Source: an uncultured Gammaproteobacteria bacterium
GTDB lineage: Bacteria; Patescibacteriota; Microgenomatia; CAZETR01; Amesbacteraceae
Direction of reading: 5' to 3'
Assembly: GCA_964633995.1 (NCBI GenBank)
Contig: CAZWKN010000001.1
Span: 134,527-198,526 of the forward strand
Length of the DNA stretch: 64,000 nt
Shown here: piece after piece, positions 53,534 through 63,744 of the stretch
How positions within the stretch are numbered: the stretch's first letter is position 1
How the letters are laid out: the number at the start of each line of letters is the position of its first letter
The notes under the pieces: model-generated
What the model was told of the DNA's origin: nothing
Database searches by the model: none
What the model saw: only the letters and a program-made list of their open reading frames with translations
Made by a program: the position numbers and the translations under genes

Positions 53534-54720
53534 ACATGAATTCATATTTTGCGACGGCGGAGCAGCAGGCGAACCCTTTTTTGAGGGGGAAACCAATAGG
53601 GGTGATAAAAGCTTTGAACAGGGGGTGCATAATCGCAGCTTCAGTGGAGGCGAAAAAATTTGGAGTGAAAACCGGCATGAATGTGTGGGATGCCAAGAAG
53701 AAATGCCCGCATATTATTTTGGTACCGTCGGATATGGACAAATATTTTTCTATTACTTGCGGGATGGTGGAAATTTTGAAATCCTACTCCCCTGTCCTGG
53801 AAATTTTTTCAATAGATGAATGTTTTTTAGATGTGACGCAGACAAAAGGTTTATATTGTGGAGGTGCGTGGGAAATGGCTTTGGAGATAAAGAAACGGAT
53901 TAGGGAAGAGTTGGGAGAGTGGATGAAATGTTCGGTGGGGATTGGCTTTTCCAAAATTGTGGCTAAGTTGGCATCTGAAATGCACAAGCCTGACGGATTA
54001 ACATGGTTGACGGTTGATAACTATCTTGAAAAGACTGAAAGTGTAGAAGTTTCTGAGGTGTGTGGAATTGGGTTTTCCCGGACGGCGTATTTAAGAACCA
54101 GGGGGGCTTTTACGTTGGGACAAGCAAGAAGATTGGAGTTGCCTGAGGAGATAAAAGATTTGGTTTTTTTGAGAAACGATGACGATTTGGTAACTGTTTC
54201 GGAGTTGGAAGCTGCTAAGAGTGTGTCGAGAACATACACCACATATAAAACTCTAAACTCTAAATTCGAAATTCTAAAATTGGTGAGAAATTTGGTGGAA
54301 GAAGTGTGTGCCAAATTAAGAGAAATGGAAATGGTGGGGAGAACTTTTATTTTAAGTTTATCAGGTAACAGTTGCCAGTCCTGCCTGCCGGCAGGCAGGT
54401 TTTCAGTTAGGAAAACGATAAATACACCGACAGACGATCCCCTTCTTATTTATGATTTGTTCGTTAGGGAATATGAAAGAAATACAGTAACAGAAGTTAG
54501 GCAAGCGGGGGTGTGGGTGACAAATTTAATGGACAATGGCCAATTGACAATTGACAGGTCGAGAACAAGTTTGTTGGGGTCGGTAGATAAGGTCAATCAA
54601 AAATTTGGATTGTTTACGTTGTATCCGGCTAGTTTGTTGGGAAATGTTTTGATCAGACCTGAAGTGACTGGTTTTTTGGGAGATAAGTGGTATAGACTAG
54701 GTGGGCCGAAGAGGACTTGA
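53512..54720 (+). CDS. dinB: DNA polymerase IV (Y-family)
   Basis: GTG start, VRTILHVDMNSYFATAEQQ (catalytic Asp/Glu), SIDECFLDVT; the C-terminal little-finger region holds three short repeat insertions; the last 18 nt overlap tRNA-Leu(CAG). Confidence 0.8.
   Translation: MRTILHVDMNSYFATAEQQANPFLRGKPIGVIKALNRGCIIAASVEAKKFGVKTGMNVWDAKKKCPHIILVPSDMDKYFSITCGMVEILKSYSPVLEIFSIDECFLDVTQTKGLYCGGAWEMALEIKKRIREELGEWMKCSVGIGFSKIVAKLASEMHKPDGLTWLTVDNYLEKTESVEVSEVCGIGFSRTAYLRTRGAFTLGQARRLELPEEIKDLVFLRNDDDLVTVSELEAAKSVSRTYTTYKTLNSKFEILKLVRNLVEEVCAKLREMEMVGRTFILSLSGNSCQSCLPAGRFSVRKTINTPTDDPLLIYDLFVREYERNTVTEVRQAGVWVTNLMDNGQLTIDRSRTSLLGSVDKVNQKFGLFTLYPASLLGNVLIRPEVTGFLGDKWYRLGGPKRT
54380..54399. repeat. 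Perfect 20-nt palindrome CCTGCCTGCCGGCAGGCAGG inside dinB (in frame: SCQSCLPAGRF)
   Basis: Identical 20-mer at 63092-63111 next to the GIY-YIG gene. Confidence 0.7.
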
Positions 54721-54783
54721 ACCTCCATGCCTTGCGGCATACGCTTCTGAAGCGTACGTGTATACCAGTTTCACCATCGGCCC
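54702..54783 (-). tRNA. tRNA-Leu (anticodon CAG)
   Basis: Manual fold: GGGCCGA acceptor, anticodon loop UUCAGAA, long variable arm; shares GGGCCGATGGTGAAACTGGTATACAC with Leu(UAG) and Leu(GAG). Confidence 0.85.
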
Positions 54784-56705: not shown

Positions 56706-56787
56706 GGGCCGATGGTGAAACTGGTATACACGCAGGTTTTAGGAACCTGTCCCGCAAGGGGTGGAGGTTCAAGTCCTCTTCGGCCCA
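56706..56787 (+). tRNA. tRNA-Leu (anticodon UAG)
   Basis: Manual fold: GGGCCGA acceptor, anticodon loop UUUAGGA, long variable arm. Confidence 0.85.
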
Positions 56788-56815
56788 CTCTGATATATAA
56801 TATAGCTTGTTTTCC

Positions 56816-56897
56816 GGGCCGATGGTGAAACTGGTATACACGTACGCTTGAGGTGCGTATGCCGTAAGGCGTGGAGGTTCAAGTCCTCTTCGGCCCA
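56816..56897 (+). tRNA. tRNA-Leu (anticodon GAG)
   Basis: Manual fold: near-identical body to Leu(UAG); anticodon loop UUGAGGU. Confidence 0.85.
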
Positions 56898-56915
56898 CAT
56901 AAACAAAATATATAT

Positions 56916-58151: not shown

Positions 58152-58258
58152 GCGGGTATAATTAATTATCGGGGTGTATCGGAAGGACTTGGGGCCCCTG
58201 CCCCAAAACTTCCTCTATCTCTCGCAAAGCTCGTGATAATTCATCGGCTTGAAAATTT
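58152..58258 (+). promoter_or_regulatory. Structured tRNA-leader repeat (copy C) upstream of tRNA-Pro
   Basis: gcgggtata...tcggaaggacttggggcccctgccccaaaacttcctctatctctcgc; same family as 63003-63069 and 63390-63456. Confidence 0.55.
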
Positions 58259-58330
58259 CGGGGTGTAATTCATCGGTAGAATGCTCGGTTTGGGACCGAG
58301 ATGCACGGGGTTCAATTCCCCGCACCCCGA
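58259..58330 (+). tRNA. tRNA-Pro (anticodon UGG)
   Basis: Manual fold: C1-G72 acceptor CGGGGUG/CACCCCG (typical bacterial tRNA-Pro), anticodon loop UUUGGGA, T-loop GGTTCAATTCC. Confidence 0.8.
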
Positions 58331-58367
58331 CAGATAGATATTTTTTTGATATATAGGTTAAAATCAA

Positions 58368-58838
58368 GTGGTGAGTAGCCTTGACGTATTATTGAGAAAA
58401 TCGGGTAAGACGTTTTTGTCGATTTTTGCGGTCTCAGCTATTTTGCCGGTGATGCTGTTTGGGGTATTGGGAAAGGGAAATTTCAACTTTTTGACCAAGG
58501 CTGATCAGCCAACAGAACTTCAGATTTGGTTTGAACCGGATGAAGTTGTTTCCCGAGTTGGTCTGCCTGTACGGGTAAAGGTAATGGGACTGTATGATGA
58601 CAAGGCCAGATTAATTCCCAGTGTAGAAGCGGTTGTGGATGGCGGTGGGGAGGTGGCGATTTTTCCATCAAAAATTGAATACGGGACAGCATTTACCGGG
58701 CAAGTAGTCTTGGGTGAAATTAGTTTGGTTTCAAAGTCTATGGGAAAGTATGAGGTAACAATTCCTCAGGAGAAGGTTTTTACCGGTTTGCCCAATTTGA
58801 CGATTTTGTCCAGCCCATTGACGGTTGTCGCTAAATAG
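58368..58838 (+). CDS. Hypothetical membrane-anchored protein at the head of the second pseudopilin operon
   Basis: 156 aa; N-terminal TM, beta-rich C-terminus. Confidence 0.4.
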   Translation: MVSSLDVLLRKSGKTFLSIFAVSAILPVMLFGVLGKGNFNFLTKADQPTELQIWFEPDEVVSRVGLPVRVKVMGLYDDKARLIPSVEAVVDGGGEVAIFPSKIEYGTAFTGQVVLGEISLVSKSMGKYEVTIPQEKVFTGLPNLTILSSPLTVVAK

Positions 58839-58845
58839 ATTTTTT

Positions 58846-59283
58846 ATGAAATTAAATCCTGCCCTGACACTTATAGAAGTACTTGTGGTGACGGCATTGA
58901 TTGCAGCTTTTTCGGTTGGGTCGTTGATTGCGTATTTTAATATTCAAAGCAAGCAGGCTCTGCAGTCGTCTGTGGATAGATTTGCCAACGTGGCCAAGAG
59001 TGCCAGAATTTACGCAAGGGAAAGCAAGGGAGGAAAGGCGTGGGGAGTTAAATCGGTTGATTCTAAATCTTATTCTTTAGTTTCCGGAAAAAAAGAGGCA
59101 CCTGTCTTGGAGGGGCAGTATGGACTTGAATCGCCCGTTGAGTTTGACTCGGGGTTTGAATTTTGGTTTAACCAGGGCGAGGGTACATTGAACGATCCGG
59201 TCTCGGTTAGGTTTAGGGTGGAGAGAAACGCTACGTATAAACAAGTGGATATTTCTTTGACGGGAGTCGTTCAGATTTTATAG
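58846..59283 (+). CDS. Pseudopilin (GspH-like)
   Basis: Start MKLNPALTLIEVLVVTALIAAF (prepilin N-terminus, Glu+5). Confidence 0.6.
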   Translation: MKLNPALTLIEVLVVTALIAAFSVGSLIAYFNIQSKQALQSSVDRFANVAKSARIYARESKGGKAWGVKSVDSKSYSLVSGKKEAPVLEGQYGLESPVEFDSGFEFWFNQGEGTLNDPVSVRFRVERNATYKQVDISLTGVVQIL

Positions 59284-59284
59284 T

Positions 59285-59773
59285 ATGAAAAAAGGAACTA
59301 CTCTATTAGAAGTATTAATATCGTTGGCCATCTTGGGGATTTTGATGGGAAGTTTTTTCCCGACAGTGGCTTTTTTGACACGCCAGTCAAGAAAATTTCA
59401 ATATGACAGTGAGGCTTCTTCTGTACTACAAGAAGGAATGGAAATTGCTTATAACGTTTTTTTGACTAACTGGAATGCAGTGAGTGACACAGGGACATAT
59501 CATCCGGTTTTGAATGCAAGTGTGGACCCTAACATATGGGGTTTGGAACCGGACGAAAAGATGGTTCGGTCGAGGTATACAAGAAAAATAGAGGTATTTC
59601 GGGTATGCAGAAATTTGAGTTCTGGTCAACAAAAAACAGGAGAATGTATAAGTGGTAACGACTATGATCTCAATAGCAGGTTAATCAAGACAACTGTTAT
59701 CTGGAAAGAAAATCAGGTAGATAGGGAAATTGCGTCCGAATTGTTAATTACTAGATTGCCGGATAATTTATGA
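59285..59773 (+). CDS. Pseudopilin (GspI/J-like)
   Basis: MKKGTTLLEVLISLAILGIL prepilin N-terminus. Confidence 0.6.
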   Translation: MKKGTTLLEVLISLAILGILMGSFFPTVAFLTRQSRKFQYDSEASSVLQEGMEIAYNVFLTNWNAVSDTGTYHPVLNASVDPNIWGLEPDEKMVRSRYTRKIEVFRVCRNLSSGQQKTGECISGNDYDLNSRLIKTTVIWKENQVDREIASELLITRLPDNL

Positions 59774-60222
59774 AGAAGGGATTTACATTAATAGAATTAT
59801 TGTTGGCTGTTTCTTTGTCGGGGGTAATTTTTGTCGTAGTGAGTTCCCTGCTTATGTTTGTGGTAACTTCTGACTTAAAAAATAAACGCCAAGAAGCCTT
59901 TGAACAAGTGAAAAACGATATGCAAATAGAACTATCGAACGCTGTAAGATGGGGGAAGGAGATCTCGTATAGTGCGGGAGAACTAGTGATAGATGGGGTT
60001 ACGTACCGACTGTTGGATGGGCGGATGTATAAAAATGCCGACCCGATCACATCAGCCGGAGTAACTATAAAAAGTTTCGGAATAAACAACTTCAGTAATG
60101 ACCTGCGGTATGTGAGCCTTAGTATTGACCTTGAGATGGAAGATAGAAGTTATGCACTATCAAACGACGTATTGACCATAGTTGTTTCTCAAAGGAAAAC
60201 GCAGTTGGGAGAGAGTATATGA
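59770..60222 (+). CDS. Pseudopilin (GspJ/PilW-like)
   Basis: MKKGFTLIELLLAVSLSGVIFVVV prepilin N-terminus; 4-nt overlaps on both sides. Confidence 0.65.
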   Translation: MKKGFTLIELLLAVSLSGVIFVVVSSLLMFVVTSDLKNKRQEAFEQVKNDMQIELSNAVRWGKEISYSAGELVIDGVTYRLLDGRMYKNADPITSAGVTIKSFGINNFSNDLRYVSLSIDLEMEDRSYALSNDVLTIVVSQRKTQLGESI

Positions 60223-61373
60223 GAAAGGGGTTTTCGAGTTTGATTGTTATCTTTGTTTTGTCTGTTGTAGCTATGTTTGTTTTTGTAGCCTGGCAATCAC
60301 GGATATTACTGTCTATTTCTAGGAGCCAGTCGTTATCTGATATGTTGAAATCTACTTACATTGCGGAATCGTGGATTAATGACGTGATAGCGCGATTTGT
60401 TGGCAATTATCCTGCTGCGTTTAGTTTTCCTTTTCTAAATACCAACACACTTGGGGATGGGACGGTGGTGAAGTCTGAAGGGGTGTCCGGCGAAGGAGTC
60501 GAAAAAATTAAAGTTACTGCCTCGAGGCAATTTGCATCCAGTGGAATAGAGCTGGAAAGACGGACTACGGCGTTGCCGGTGAATGCCATAGATAATGTAA
60601 AAATAGTTTTGAACATTGACTGCACCAGAAGCATGAACAACAAAGCAGATGCGGCGTGTACGACTGGGTGCACTAGCAGAATGCATGAAGCAAAGTTGGC
60701 GGCCAGAAATTTTGCAGAAGCCGTAAAACAATTTAATACCACACACGCCGCTCCGGTGTTGGAGTTGGGTTTATCGACATTTGCGTTAAATAGTAAATGG
60801 GTGACGGATTCGGTGGGAAATGAATTGGTCCCCGGAAGCGATATCGATAGAATTATAGAAGGTATTGATGATAACTTTTCGGACACTCAGGAGGACAGCA
60901 GGGCATGCAGATCCCCTCTTAACAGTGGGGCTACTAATATTGGTGTAGGGCTGGAGTTTATGAATAATTATTTTGTGGGCGTAGGAGCAAATATTCGGGA
61001 AAAAAGGATCGAAGTGGTAATTACCGATGGGGAGCCTAATTCGACTAACGTGAATGATTATTGTGGCGCTACCTCTTGCACTTTGCACTGTGCTGATGCT
61101 GCCAGAAGACTTCTGGCTTGTGATTTGGCAAAAGATAGTGTGTTGGTAAGTGAGGTGGGTAAGCTTGGTCTACGGCCGGAGGGGGTGGAGGCGTATTCGG
61201 TTACAATCTCTAATGAAGTAGCCCAGGAAACTAAGGATATTTTGACGAGTTATTCTAATCAGTATTTTGATTCTGCCAACGCAACGAAATTAAATGGGGT
61301 ATTACAAACATTGCTGTCACAAATAATTGAAAGTTCCAGCGGTATCACAATCAGGAGGGTGTTACCTTTATGA
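60219..61373 (+). CDS. Pilin-like N-terminus fused to von Willebrand factor A (vWA) domain: putative pilus-tip adhesin/GspK-like
   Basis: MRKGFSSLIVIFVLSVVAM pseudopilin-like N-terminus; IVLNIDCTRSMNN (DxTxS MIDAS-like) ... ITDGEPNST (vWA). Confidence 0.55.
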   Translation: MRKGFSSLIVIFVLSVVAMFVFVAWQSRILLSISRSQSLSDMLKSTYIAESWINDVIARFVGNYPAAFSFPFLNTNTLGDGTVVKSEGVSGEGVEKIKVTASRQFASSGIELERRTTALPVNAIDNVKIVLNIDCTRSMNNKADAACTTGCTSRMHEAKLAARNFAEAVKQFNTTHAAPVLELGLSTFALNSKWVTDSVGNELVPGSDIDRIIEGIDDNFSDTQEDSRACRSPLNSGATNIGVGLEFMNNYFVGVGANIREKRIEVVITDGEPNSTNVNDYCGATSCTLHCADAARRLLACDLAKDSVLVSEVGKLGLRPEGVEAYSVTISNEVAQETKDILTSYSNQYFDSANATKLNGVLQTLLSQIIESSSGITIRRVLPL

Positions 61374-62410
61374 AAAAGTTGTTAATTTTTTTATTGGTTG
61401 TGAGCAGTTTGGTAATGGTGGTTGGAAAATTAATTATGAAAAAACAAAGTGTGGATGTTTTACGAACCGATTGGACAAGGGGAAATGCCGGTGCTTCAGT
61501 CCTATTGGTTGAATATGGCGATTTCCAGTGTCCGTCGTGTGGGGCTTATTATCCGATAATAAAGCAATTGGAGACCGAGTATAAAGATAAATTGGCTGTG
61601 GTGTTTAGACAATACCCACTAGAACATGTGCATAAAAATGCCCTTGCTGCCGCAAAAGCTGCTGAGGCAGCGGGAGAGCTGGGTAAATTTTGGGAGATGC
61701 ACGATGTGTTGTTTGAGAAGCAAAAGGAGTGGGTTGATTTGGATAATCCCCTGCCAAAATTTAATGAGTATGCCCAGGGGTTGGGTCTTTCCAAAGATAG
61801 ATTTAACAGCTTGATGAATGACGCAAAAATAGAGACAAATATAAGAGCAGATATGGCAACAGGAGACAAGGCAAATGTAGAAGGAACCCCCACTTTTTTT
61901 GTAAACGGAAAGATAATAGGATTGCCGGGAGGGCTAGAGGGGTTTAAAAAAATTATTAATGGGGCTTCGGTCGATACTTCTGAAAAAGTACACGATCATT
62001 TCGATTTTGCAATGTATACAGATTTGGGTGATAAGATGAATTTTGCCAAGCCTGAATTTATGGAGAGGGACGAGGCTATTCACATGCATGACAACAATGG
62101 CGAGGTGGTGCATATTCATTCAAAAGGCGTGACGCTTGGTCAGTTTTTAAAATCAATCGGCGAAGAAAGTCCGGCAGAGGCGGCTTGGTATGTAAATGGT
62201 GTAAAAATGAACGGTCCCTTGGATAATTATCAGCCGAAAGATTTGGATAGAATTGTGGTTAATATTATGGGAATCGGGCAGACGTTAAATAATGCGGTGT
62301 TAGATAAGATGGTGTCGGACAAAGCCTGCATTTATTCCGAGAAATGTCCGGAACGGGGCAAACCTCCTACGGAAGAGTGTGTGGGTGGTTTGGGGACAGA
62401 TTGCAAATAA
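61370..62410 (+). CDS. DsbA-like thiol:disulfide oxidoreductase with extra C-terminal domain
   Basis: Signal/anchor; LVEYGDFQCPSCGAYYP (CxxC thioredoxin fold), TPTFFVNGK (cis-Pro loop region); about 150-aa C-terminal extension with a terminal Cys cluster. Confidence 0.65.
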   Translation: MKKLLIFLLVVSSLVMVVGKLIMKKQSVDVLRTDWTRGNAGASVLLVEYGDFQCPSCGAYYPIIKQLETEYKDKLAVVFRQYPLEHVHKNALAAAKAAEAAGELGKFWEMHDVLFEKQKEWVDLDNPLPKFNEYAQGLGLSKDRFNSLMNDAKIETNIRADMATGDKANVEGTPTFFVNGKIIGLPGGLEGFKKIINGASVDTSEKVHDHFDFAMYTDLGDKMNFAKPEFMERDEAIHMHDNNGEVVHIHSKGVTLGQFLKSIGEESPAEAAWYVNGVKMNGPLDNYQPKDLDRIVVNIMGIGQTLNNAVLDKMVSDKACIYSEKCPERGKPPTEECVGGLGTDCK

Positions 62411-62412
62411 AT

Positions 62413-62991
62413 ATGACTTCACGGACCCACGATTTGTTTGCTTTTACATTCCTGGCCGGAACCGTAGCTTATTTTCAATTGGGAGCTATGAGTTTGTCGA
62501 CTGCCGTAGTAGCTCTGGCGACTGGATTTTTGGGAGGGTTGGCGCCGGATTTAGACGAGCCTGGGTCTGCTCTGTGGCGAAGACTACCAGCTGGATCTGG
62601 ATCGATAGTAGGAAGAATAGTGGCCCCGATATTCGGATCACATAGGTTTATTTCCCATTCCATAGTTGGATTATGTTTGTTTGGATTTGGAGCTAAAAGA
62701 TTGTTGGATCTCGTATCCCCTGTAGTGCTAGTAGACATGAATGTGGTGTGGTGGGGCTTTGTGTTGGGAGTAGTTTCCCATTTGGTAGCAGATTCACTAA
62801 CCGTGGAGGGTGTGCCGTGGCTGTGGCCTTTGAAATGGAAATTTGGTTTCCCCCCATTTGCGTTTTTGCGAATAAAGACGGGAGGGTTTTTGGAAAAATT
62901 TTTGGTGTTCCCTGCTCTACTGGGTTTAAACGGAGCGCTTTTTTATTACCGTTATCAAATCTTTTTAAATTTTATCAAGGGGTTGGTATAA
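62413..62991 (+). CDS. Membrane-bound metal-dependent hydrolase (DUF457/YdjM-like)
   Basis: Start MTSRTHDLFAFTFLAG; H/D-rich motifs (HDLF, HSIVG, SHLVAD) across about 5 TM helices. Confidence 0.5.
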   Translation: MTSRTHDLFAFTFLAGTVAYFQLGAMSLSTAVVALATGFLGGLAPDLDEPGSALWRRLPAGSGSIVGRIVAPIFGSHRFISHSIVGLCLFGFGAKRLLDLVSPVVLVDMNVVWWGFVLGVVSHLVADSLTVEGVPWLWPLKWKFGFPPFAFLRIKTGGFLEKFLVFPALLGLNGALFYYRYQIFLNFIKGLV

Positions 62992-63002
62992 TAAGGGGGT
63001 TC

Positions 63003-63069
63003 GCGGGTATATCAGAAAGACTTGGAACTGATGTTCCAAAATTTCTTCTATACTCCGCTCGCCACGCTC
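63003..63069 (+). promoter_or_regulatory. Structured tRNA-leader repeat (copy A) preceding the truncated tRNA-Gly copy
   Basis: gcgggtatatcagaaagacttggaactgatgttccaaaatttcttctatactccgctcgc; inner and outer stems differ from copies B and C by compensatory substitutions. Confidence 0.55.
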
Positions 63070-63091
63070 GCGGGTATAGCTCAATGGTAGA
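63070..63091 (+). pseudogene. Truncated tRNA-Gly 5-prime fragment (nt 1-22 through the D-arm)
   Basis: gcgggtatagctcaatggtaga is identical to the first 22 nt of the intact tRNA-Gly at 63457, then diverges into the palindrome CCTGCCTGCCGGCAGGCAGG. Confidence 0.7.
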
Positions 63092-63111
63092 CCTGCCTGC
63101 CGGCAGGCAGG
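63092..63111. repeat. Perfect 20-nt palindrome CCTGCCTGCCGGCAGGCAGG at the junction of the truncated tRNA-Gly copy and the GIY-YIG gene
   Basis: Identical to 54380-54399 within dinB. Confidence 0.7.
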
Positions 63112-63123
63112 GCACAGTTTTCC

Positions 63124-63369
63124 ATGTATTTTGTGTACATAATTCAAAGCAGTTCAACTAAAAAGTTTTATACTGGAATTACTAACAACATTGACAGGCG
63201 GCTTGAAGAGCACAATCGGATTAATTCTAATTCAGTGGTATCTCGTGGGTTGACTGATTTCGAGTTGGTATATACAGAAGAAGTTTGTGATAGAATTTCA
63301 GCACGAAAACTCGAAAAATACTTAAAATCAGGAGCAGGTAGAGAGTTTCGAGATGAAATAGTAAAATGA
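63124..63369 (+). CDS. GIY-YIG nuclease-domain protein (free-standing homing-endonuclease-like)
   Basis: 81 aa; MYFVYIIQSSSTKKFYTGITNNIDRRLEEHN matches the GIY-(10-11)-YIG ... R ... E ... N catalytic motif order. Confidence 0.75.
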   Translation: MYFVYIIQSSSTKKFYTGITNNIDRRLEEHNRINSNSVVSRGLTDFELVYTEEVCDRISARKLEKYLKSGAGREFRDEIVK

Positions 63370-63389
63370 CGGTGACGCTCGTTTCACTC

Positions 63390-63456
63390 GCGGGTATATC
63401 GGAAGATCTTGGGGCCCCTGCCCCAAAACTTCCTCTATTCCCCGCTCGCTACGTTC
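63390..63456 (+). promoter_or_regulatory. Structured tRNA-leader repeat (copy B) upstream of intact tRNA-Gly
   Basis: gcgggtatatcggaagatcttggggcccctgccccaaaacttcctctattccccgctcgc. Confidence 0.55.
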
Positions 63457-63527
63457 GCGGGTATAGCTCAATGGTAGAGCACTAGTTTTCCAAACTAGGT
63501 ACAGGGGTCCGATTCCCCTTACCCGCT
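63457..63527 (+). tRNA. tRNA-Gly (anticodon UCC)
   Basis: Manual fold: GCGGGUA acceptor, D-arm GCUCAAUGGUAGAGC, anticodon loop UUUCCAA, T-loop GGTCCGATTCC, discriminator U. Confidence 0.85.
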
Positions 63528-63744
63528 CTCGTCTTTCGTCGATCCGTCGCCTTTGGCTAGGACGACTACGGACGATAGTGGGTGATATGTCTAGATCAGA
63601 AGCAGCTGCTCAAAGAGTAAGAAGAAAAAGAGTGGAGTCTGGGGTAATGAATTGATTGTTTTGGGATTGGCGGGTTTGCCGATTGCCGGCATTATTTCAT
63701 TTGTCATGGCCAATTCCAGTTGATAAAAACAAATAGTTCGATAC

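Follow-up and report, generated by a model that had tools for sequence, protein, structure and literature searches.

A minimal GIY-YIG nuclease gene and a 20-nt palindrome in a recurrent cassette at bacterial tRNA genes

Integrase islands and prophages that enter tRNA genes are kilobases long and encode tyrosine integrases; what they duplicate is the tRNA's 3' part, and the displaced fragment lies downstream. Short dispersed GC-rich modules are another described kind of element, and include the repetitive extragenic palindromic (REP) sequences with their REP-associated tyrosine transposases (RAYTs), the Rickettsia palindromic elements (RPEs), the palindromes by tRNA genes in Neurospora mitochondria and the GC clusters of yeast mitochondrial DNA; some of these modules lie in frame in protein genes or beside tRNA genes, and REP/RAYT palindromes are linked to an enzyme gene. 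To our knowledge, REP sequences, RPEs and the mitochondrial GC clusters have no GIY-YIG partner. The literature mentions RPEs (PMC1779305) and records group I introns carrying GIY-YIG open reading frames (ORFs) in the anticodon loops of bacterial tRNAs (PMC3984707). The tRNA gene cluster of phage T4 contains a free-standing GIY-YIG homing endonuclease gene, SegB; its product recognizes 27 bp, the conserved T-psi-C motif among them, and the gene spreads with the flanking tRNA genes by homing (PMC2330249). Prokaryotic SLX1-like GIY-YIG proteins have been described as vertically inherited repair proteins, with the selfish GIY-YIG enzymes assigned to the UvrC-like lineage (Dunin-Horkawicz et al. 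2006, PMC1564403). Here we analyze a 64,000-nt stretch of contig CAZWKN010000001.1 (the window), which contains 11 tRNA genes (ARAGORN) and in which, at 63003 to 63528, a minimal GIY-YIG nuclease gene is preceded by a partial 5' copy of tRNA-Gly(UCC) and followed by the intact tRNA gene, the partial copy being interrupted by a 20-nt palindrome (PAL). On balance, we consider this locus to be probably one copy of a widespread selfish cassette living in tRNA transcription units, and we are highly confident that it belongs to a mobile cassette that recurs at tRNA genes.

The features of the locus, in order along the window, are as follows, psi denoting a 5' pseudo-copy of the tRNA.

62964 to 62992, plus strand: sigma-70-like promoter, with TTTAAA, a 17-nt spacer and TG-n-TATAAT (extended -10); 10/12 matches, top site in the region
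63003 to 63069, plus strand: psi-a ("leader A"), made of tRNA-Gly nt 1-9 (GCGGGTATA, 63003 to 63011), hairpin module HP2a and an 18-nt tail
63070 to 63091, plus strand: psi-b part 1, identical to tRNA-Gly nt 1-22 (22/22)
63092 to 63111, no strand assigned: PAL, the perfect 20-nt palindrome CCTGCCTGCCGGCAGGCAGG, a clean insert in the D-stem 3' strand of the pseudo-copy, between TAGA and GCA
63112 to 63124, plus strand: psi-b part 2, tRNA-Gly nt 23-36 minus 1 nt (GCAC-AGTTTTCCA), including the anticodon TCC
63124 to 63369, plus strand: GIY-YIG nuclease gene, 81 aa, SLX1/UPF0213-like branch by profile, structure search and catalytic residues
63370 to 63389, plus strand: 20-nt spacer resembling the tail after each hairpin module (CGCTCG..C.CTC), repeat family D2
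63390 to 63456, plus strand: psi-c ("leader B"), made of tRNA-Gly nt 1-9, hairpin module HP2b and a tail
63457 to 63528, plus strand: intact tRNA-Gly(UCC) (ARAGORN; Rfam tRNA model, 71 bits)

Read from the promoter, the order is nested: psi-a (nt 1-9) with HP2a, psi-b (nt 1-22) with PAL and its continuation (nt 23-36), the ORF, psi-c (nt 1-9) with HP2b, and tRNA-Gly. A preliminary description, made from the sequence alone, had named the same elements in this order at 63003-63527, and the tRNA-Gly, the 81-aa ORF, the palindrome and the direct repeat were all located there. The duplicated block it put at about 90 nt is a direct repeat of 91 nt (63001-63091 against 63388-63478), although its identity is 81% and not the roughly 85% given. 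Its "leaders" are indeed duplicated, but each 67-nt leader consists of tRNA-Gly nt 1-9 followed by a hairpin module of about 58 nt. The partial tRNA copy, taken at first for the initial 22 nt, is longer than that: with PAL taken out, psi-b matches tRNA-Gly nt 1-36 at 35 of 36 positions and runs past the anticodon by one base, so PAL is an insertion in a 5' half-tRNA and not the edge of a tRNA fragment. The ATG of the ORF coincides exactly with the end of this homology, the last base of psi-b part 2 being the A of the start codon. What stands of the original interpretation is a small element with a GIY-YIG gene at a tRNA and an intact copy downstream, an arrangement that recurs at 10 tRNA amino-acid types; entry of the ORF at the D-arm does not stand, as PAL alone sits in the D-arm and the ORF begins at the anticodon loop. 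The whole insert measures about 390 bp, and the GIY-YIG gene is its only ORF.

A shuffle test gave 0 expected matches to PAL in the window against 2 observed, and psi-a (HP2a) and psi-c (HP2b) fold at -24.8 kcal/mol (z -5.7) and -28.8 kcal/mol (z -4.4), HP2b having two compensatory stem pairs relative to HP2a; these values together exclude chance. The promoter-like site ending at 62992 is the only strong one of the region and puts the start of transcription near position 63000, on the initial base of the repeat block. Analogous -10 boxes stand immediately 5' of the pseudo-copy in four other loci (L003, L059, L132 and L148), and it is likely that the ORF is co-transcribed from the tRNA promoter. 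An independent assembly of the same organism (L001, a Logan SRR8893623 contig equal to window 58303-63437) is 100% identical to the window and stops inside leader B; the repeat evidently breaks short-read assemblies.

The cassette would combine two known kinds of element, a free-standing selfish nuclease gene and a palindromic mini-element, and the chance that it stands for a new class of mobile element is substantial. SegB is its nearest functional analogue, as both are GIY-YIG nuclease genes among tRNA genes. However, SegB is a two-domain, phage-borne enzyme with an intergenic gene that makes no pseudo-tRNA and has no palindrome, whereas the protein of the cassette is one 81-aa domain of the SLX1/UPF0213 branch, encoded on the chromosomes of many bacterial phyla. 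Integrase islands and the cassette alike enter a tRNA gene, regenerate an intact copy and leave a partial tRNA repeat at the other end, yet the cassette has no integrase, is far from kilobase length, duplicates the 5' part (nt 1-36) and leaves its fragment upstream; neither a recombinase gene nor a 3' tRNA repeat was found, the sole ORF of the insert being the GIY-YIG gene. Group I introns share with the window's cassette a GIY-YIG gene that breaks the tRNA sequence at the anticodon loop while tRNA function is kept, but here there is neither a ribozyme nor a 3' exon or half directly after the ORF, and function is kept by duplication instead of splicing. A search of Rfam at E <= 10 over 62800-63700 returned tRNA only, with no ribozyme and no other RNA family.

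The REP/RAYT systems offer a different point of comparison. Dispersed palindromes linked to an enzyme gene are present here too (PAL is in at least 120 loci and precedes 60 of 92 ORFs), whereas the Y1/HUH (IS200/IS605-type) transposase with repeats on both sides is absent: the enzyme is a GIY-YIG protein and PAL is upstream only. PAL further differs from REP sequences, RPEs and GC clusters in being only 20 nt long, identical across distant phyla and seated in the D-arm of a pseudo-tRNA. Like an RPE, it occurs as an in-frame insertion relative to empty orthologues, in the gene for DNA polymerase IV (Pol IV). A search of the full-text literature, which included the palindrome string itself and covered open-access papers but not subscription papers, found no description of the cassette.

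Judged by its sequence and predicted structure, the protein is a minimal GIY-YIG nuclease of the SLX1/UPF0213 type, of a size normal for a very large family. The GIY-YIG assignment made at the outset holds in a profile search (PF01541, residues 1-69, 55.1 bits against a cutoff of 22.6, E 9.6e-15), and the residues Y5, Y16, G18, R26, H30 and E64, invariant in a 32-sequence alignment, are all present. The closest solved relatives by sequence are the UPF0213 proteins BH0048 (1zg2, E 2.4e-11) and EF2693 (1ywl, 7e-10), followed by SLX1 (6e-5 to 6e-3), with I-TevI (0.06) and UvrC much farther away. An AlphaFold (AF2) model (pLDDT 85) has the element order E-E-H-E-H-H of the GIY-YIG fold, and the best Foldseek matches of this model are 1zg2, SLX1, I-TevI and UvrC N-terminal domains, a ranking that agrees with the sequence search. 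Minimal SLX1-like proteins are defined by a single domain that lacks both auxiliary domains and a C-terminal Asn (PMC1564403), and the window protein is a single domain with no Asn after E64 in ...EKYLKSGAGREFRDEIVK; 1zg2 and 1ywl share with it the minimal domain, the catalytic residues and the absent C-terminal Asn. Unlike the SLX1-like/UPF0213 family as described, a large sub-family here has the build of a mobile cassette linked to tRNA genes.

The preliminary description had also called the protein homing-endonuclease-like and its size unusual. The two-domain architecture of the classical homing endonucleases is lacking, as the score on the intron-type endonuclease model TIGR01453 is 29.9 bits, below the cutoff of 56.05, and the alignment spans the catalytic part only (positions 2-75 of 215). 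The size proves to be the norm for the SLX1/UPF0213-like family, since homologues in Patescibacteria and other phyla typically have 78-90 aa. The absence of a DNA-binding extension was seen correctly, the protein ending at residue 81. The family profile is matched over its full length, which, together with an in-frame TAG at 63088-63090, excludes the longer or frameshifted gene that was to be checked for. A profile search of 1.84 billion representatives returned 24,528 at E <= 1e-3 and 5,058 at E <= 1e-10, and one database protein (P0001) is identical to that of the window. PADLOC phage-defence models gave no match for the protein and membership of a defence system was rejected; IMG/VR viral contigs held only 5 relatives, and a phage origin of the gene was rejected as well. 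P0003, P0004, P0006 and many members of the profile search are annotated with N-terminal extensions of 20-50 aa. These are probably read-through of the pseudo-tRNA and PAL, because PAL contains no stop codon in any of the six frames, and the window has a spurious ORF of this sort itself (137 aa, 62748-63161).

The architecture of the locus recurs widely. Two homologues fetched at random already displayed the window's layout at a different tRNA: in L003 and in the Levybacteria contig L002, a tRNA-His 5' half, a palindrome between TAGA and GCA, a GIY-YIG ORF and an intact tRNA-His follow one another. A PAL scan of GTDB genomes revealed the same order at tRNA-Lys in a curated WWE3 genome (L059), at tRNA-Arg in a Bacteroidota genome (L030) and, with two PALs, at tRNA-Leu (L101), as well as a tRNA-Val with pseudo-copy and PAL but no ORF (L049). 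PAL occupies the identical tRNA site in three of these loci, being exact in L003 and L059 and having a variant center in L002. For counting, 80 metagenome loci were gathered via the protein alone, and the figures that follow refer to the 92 ORFs in all fetched loci. A same-strand tRNA starts between 15 nt before and 122 nt after the ORF stop in 49 of the 92, which is a lower bound because several loci with no tRNA call still have tRNA-like direct repeats around the ORF. The tRNA start lies within 20 nt of the stop in 40 of these 49, and a 5' pseudo-copy of the same tRNA is found upstream of the ORF in 41, with a pooled identity to the local tRNA of 97.3% (1239/1273). PAL, with up to 4 errors, is present within 130 nt 5' of 60 of the 92 ORFs.

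The tRNA types carrying the cassette number 10 (His, Gly, Lys, Leu, Asn, Arg, Phe, Asp, Ser and Cys). In 30 of 32 cases the position of PAL in raw tRNA numbering is about 8-23, in the D-arm; PAL is a clean insertion in the pseudo-copy with neither target duplication nor deletion. The 3' end of the pseudo-copy varies among loci from tRNA nt 14 to 95 or full length, with full-length copies in two of them (L188 and L159), and the ORF stop codon falls within the tRNA in 11 loci, mostly at tRNA nt 8-10. DNA similarity between cassettes on unrelated contigs starts at the 5' end of the pseudo-copy and ends at the 3' end of the tRNA. The duplication in L030, L138 and L176 begins 22 to about 85 nt 5' of tRNA +1, and we rejected an origin of the pseudo-copy at the RNA level, as cDNA of a 5' tRNA half, on this ground. 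Two or three GIY-YIG ORFs, sometimes of different clades, occur in a single tRNA array in L002, L173, L155, L156, L161, L182 and L194, and in L154 two consecutive pseudo-copies, one local-like and one foreign, precede one ORF. Another arrangement is seen in L026 (4017-4225, Patescibacteria JBBUBW010000003), where a 5' tRNA piece with PAL, an intact tRNA-Met and a 3' tRNA piece ending in CCCCTGACACCA follow one another; the acceptor strand of the 3' piece pairs with the 5' piece, and one tRNA appears to be split around another.

Within the window, hairpin-bearing 5' self-fragments are found at 2 of the 11 tRNA genes, of which one has the ORF, and the other 9 are unoccupied. The second of these loci is at tRNA-Pro.

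58171 to 58258, plus strand: ORF-less relative of the cassette, made of tRNA-Pro nt 1-9, the HP2 module, its tail, tRNA-Pro nt 8-18 and an 11-nt spacer
58259 to 58331, plus strand: intact tRNA-Pro(UGG), directly after the ORF-less relative

Leader B of the tRNA-Gly locus and the copy at 58169-58217 are 92% identical over 50 nt. The possibility that the leader tail, TAC(T)CCGCTC, is a remnant of a tRNA 3' acceptor was dropped, as the similar tail of the tRNA-Pro module mismatches tRNA-Pro.

A rough neighbor-joining tree of the ORFs gives some indication of how the cassettes are related. The ORF clades track the tRNA type, with a His clade, a large clade spanning all Leu isoacceptors and a Gly pair, and the hairpin type co-varies with them: the canonical PAL is spread through the greater part of the tree, a CCCGCCTCG...CGAGGCGGG hairpin is found mainly in one clade, and the ORFs with no hairpin form separate clusters. 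The ORF at the window's tRNA-Gly lies outside the Gly pair and nests in the His clade, whose PAL site, GGTAGA^GCA, it shares, and this placement suggests that the window's element may have switched between tRNAs with nearly identical D-arms. In L002 and L130 the pseudo-copy has the acceptor sequence of another tRNA-His allele, that seen in L003, while the local tRNA is self-consistent; the pseudo-copy also differs from the local tRNA in L157, L189 and L154. These foreign and divergent copies indicate that the pseudo-copy can be imported with the cassette, as in homing co-conversion.

PAL is also found on its own. It occurs in at least 120 loci of GTDB genomes, its hosts being Patescibacteria, Bacteroidota (isolates included), Omnitrophota, Planctomycetota, Gammaproteobacteria, Nitrospirota, Bdellovibrionota and Chloroflexota. 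Among the matches listed, a GIY-YIG ORF is adjacent to about 8 of 132 copies (~6%), 10 of 127 have a tRNA no more than 200 nt away, and about a quarter are inside stop-free frames of at least 150 aa. Isolates with PAL include members of Winogradskyella, Flagellimonas and Olivibacter. We rejected a sequencing-adapter artefact, given the isolate genomes, the many projects, the variant forms and the homologous positions in independent samples. One such solo copy is in the window.

54380 to 54399, no strand assigned: second, solo copy of PAL, exact, in frame within the DNA polymerase IV gene (53536-54720)

The insertion in Pol IV was judged from an alignment of orthologues, the alignment to PDB structures having stopped short of the little-finger region. 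In most orthologues the loop is empty (L216 reads GATAG followed by TTTTTGG), in the closest orthologue (L215) PAL plus one base is found at the same spot in another reading frame, and other orthologues have a different hairpin-derived insert (TPNPSPNLGEG) in the same loop; a palindrome-encoded peptide is present in 5 of 120 Pol IV homologues. The comparison of empty and filled orthologues shows PAL to be a true insertion element, which persists at sites that tolerate it. Other GC-rich hairpin modules, for example CCGCCAGCTGGCGG, GTCATTGCGAGGAGCG..CGACGAAGCAATCTC, CCCGATAGCTATCGGG and TCATCCTGAGC..., recur beside solo PALs in distant phyla (L007, L018, L022, L027, L047, L077, L093 and L100), often with short k-mer repeats, which hints at a wider repertoire of hairpin modules.

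If the locus is a selfish cassette, its workings might be envisaged as follows. A minimal GIY-YIG gene is wedged between a tRNA promoter and the tRNA coding sequence, with a partial 5' copy of the same tRNA on the promoter side and the complete tRNA on the other, and because the complete tRNA is kept downstream the host would lose nothing. The tRNA promoter would drive the nuclease mRNA, which would form the 5' portion of the tRNA precursor. A GC-rich palindromic mini-element, here the 20-nt PAL, interrupts the pseudo-copy, in almost every case within the D-arm, and would also spread alone into intergenic DNA and in frame into tolerant protein loops. Spread of the cassette may proceed by nuclease-initiated recombination between tRNA genes, with co-conversion of the flanks, and the conserved D-arm could supply the homology for moves between tRNAs with similar D-arms, such as from His to Gly(UCC); such homing-like spread by double-strand break repair is a real possibility, which we put forward tentatively. 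With similar caution, PAL may be the recognition site of the nuclease, read as DNA sequence or as a cruciform by a small and probably oligomeric enzyme, and it could in addition break the direct repeat of pseudo-copy and tRNA that might otherwise delete the cassette.

Several observations weigh against this reading. The 81-aa protein lacks a DNA-binding domain, and it is therefore not evident that it could cut a tRNA gene in a sequence-specific way; moreover, if the D-arm is the target, the protection of the intact downstream tRNA, which keeps its D-arm, has no explanation. The same applies to the duplication of the 5' tRNA segment, of 9 to more than 100 nt. No upstream hairpin is found at 23 of the 92 ORFs, some ORFs have no downstream tRNA, and the small share of PALs adjacent to an ORF means that PAL could be an independent colonizer of neutral DNA that merely accumulates in pseudo-copies. 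An all-against-all BLASTN of 216 loci gave no filled/empty pair for the ORF; orthologues of the YdjM-like upstream neighbor are at most 62% identical and non-syntenic, the downstream genes differing in 6 of 6 loci. Finally, the neighbor-joining tree, built from proteins of about 80 aa, is not robust.

The rival explanation closest to the selfish tRNA cassette is modeled on REP/RAYT and overlaps with it, the two differing in the real substrate and "purpose" of the nuclease. The GIY-YIG protein would chiefly mobilize PAL and related hairpins, the tRNA being a well-expressed safe harbor and the pseudo-tRNA a by-product. Such an account would fit the excess of solo over ORF-linked PALs (about 15 to 1 among the matches listed), their presence in at least 120 loci of many phyla, a PAL sequence that is conserved although identity among the ORFs is only 45-60%, a hairpin type that varies together with the ORF clade, the behavior of PAL as an insertion, in frame in Pol IV included, and the fact that the closest structural relatives are structure-specific SLX1 nucleases. 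We nevertheless think it unlikely, as it leaves unaccounted for the constant match of the pseudo-copy to the downstream tRNA and the abutment of the ORF on tRNA +1, and PAL is only 5' of the ORF and not on both sides as with RAYT genes. Nor do we know of any GIY-YIG enzyme that transposes hairpins. Less probable again is a benefit to the host, in which an SLX1-like housekeeping nuclease would sit beside busy tRNA genes to deal with R-loops, cruciforms or stalled forks or to guard against integration, with the pseudo-copies as rearrangement scars. The published view of prokaryotic SLX1-like proteins is that of vertically inherited repair factors (PMC1564403), the catalytic residues are conserved over a family of 24,528 representatives, and the lack of a phage-defence match and the few copies in viral contigs agree with it as well. 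However, a housekeeping function is hard to square with an ORF at just 1 of the 11 tRNA genes of the window, with 2-3 copies per tRNA array from different clades, or with decayed ORF-less versions (L049 and the tRNA-Pro locus), and both the similarity between unrelated genomes that is limited to the cassette and the pseudo-copies with foreign acceptors are signatures of mobility.

Two further accounts would dispense with a cassette altogether. The preliminary description had offered, as an alternative, a tandem duplication of leader and tRNA-Gly whose first copy was later destroyed by an unrelated GIY-YIG gene. Whole-tRNA duplications do occur, as the full-length pseudo-copies in L188 and L159 illustrate, but the same polarity, truncation of the pseudo-copy, D-arm palindrome and abutment of ORF and tRNA recur in at least 41 independent loci and at 10 tRNA types in many genomes, which coincidence cannot produce; such a history is very improbable and is effectively refuted by this recurrence. 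Alternatively, the upstream 5' half could be a real exon of a split or interrupted tRNA, with the ORF in an intron that is spliced out to yield tRNA-Gly. In the window the homology does end where tRNA introns canonically lie, after nt 37 (standard numbering), yet we give this explanation hardly any credence: the Rfam search turned up no ribozyme or other RNA family beside the tRNA, the ORF takes up the entire interval, the downstream tRNA is complete by itself, the 5' half is broken by the palindrome, and the pseudo-copy ends anywhere from tRNA nt 14 to 95 among loci.

A broader proposal, which we hold more tentatively than either homing-like spread or recognition of PAL, is that these loci belong to an unrecognized cross-phylum class of mobile DNA, in which SLX1-type GIY-YIG nucleases are the autonomous partners of GC-rich palindromes of about 20 nt, the gene entering tRNA units, a 5' duplication regenerating the tRNA and the palindromes spreading in trans to intergenic sites and, in frame, to proteins. 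If true, it would add a third harmless way into an essential gene, beside self-splicing introns and inteins and the att-site regeneration of integrases, and a new tactic of selfish DNA, in which the 5' part of an essential gene is duplicated in place of splicing. The small GIY-YIG proteins now called "hypothetical", with about 24,500 cluster representatives, would gain a function and a lifestyle, and the proposal would overturn the view of bacterial SLX1-like GIY-YIG proteins as purely vertical repair factors. A 20-nt palindrome that is conserved base for base across distant phyla enters both tRNA pseudo-copies and protein genes, and the nuclease would be a candidate for the enzyme that moves short GC-rich palindromic elements, whose mobility has long lacked an explanation. 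On the practical side, the cassettes break assemblies and yield mis-annotated N-terminal extensions and spurious ORFs.

The surroundings of the locus are typical of Patescibacteria and unrelated to the cassette. On its 5' side (58303-61373) are small genes with hydrophobic pilin-like N-termini, one with a weak N_methyl match, and a gene for a 384-aa protein, followed by a DsbA/thioredoxin-like gene and a YdjM-family membrane hydrolase. Elsewhere in the window, the tRNA-Leu genes at 54700-54783 (minus strand, CAG), 56706-56788 (plus strand, UAG) and 56816-56898 (plus strand, GAG) are identical in their first 27 and last 28 nt, all differences being confined to the anticodon and variable arms, which suggests a recent duplication with anticodon change, or gene conversion.

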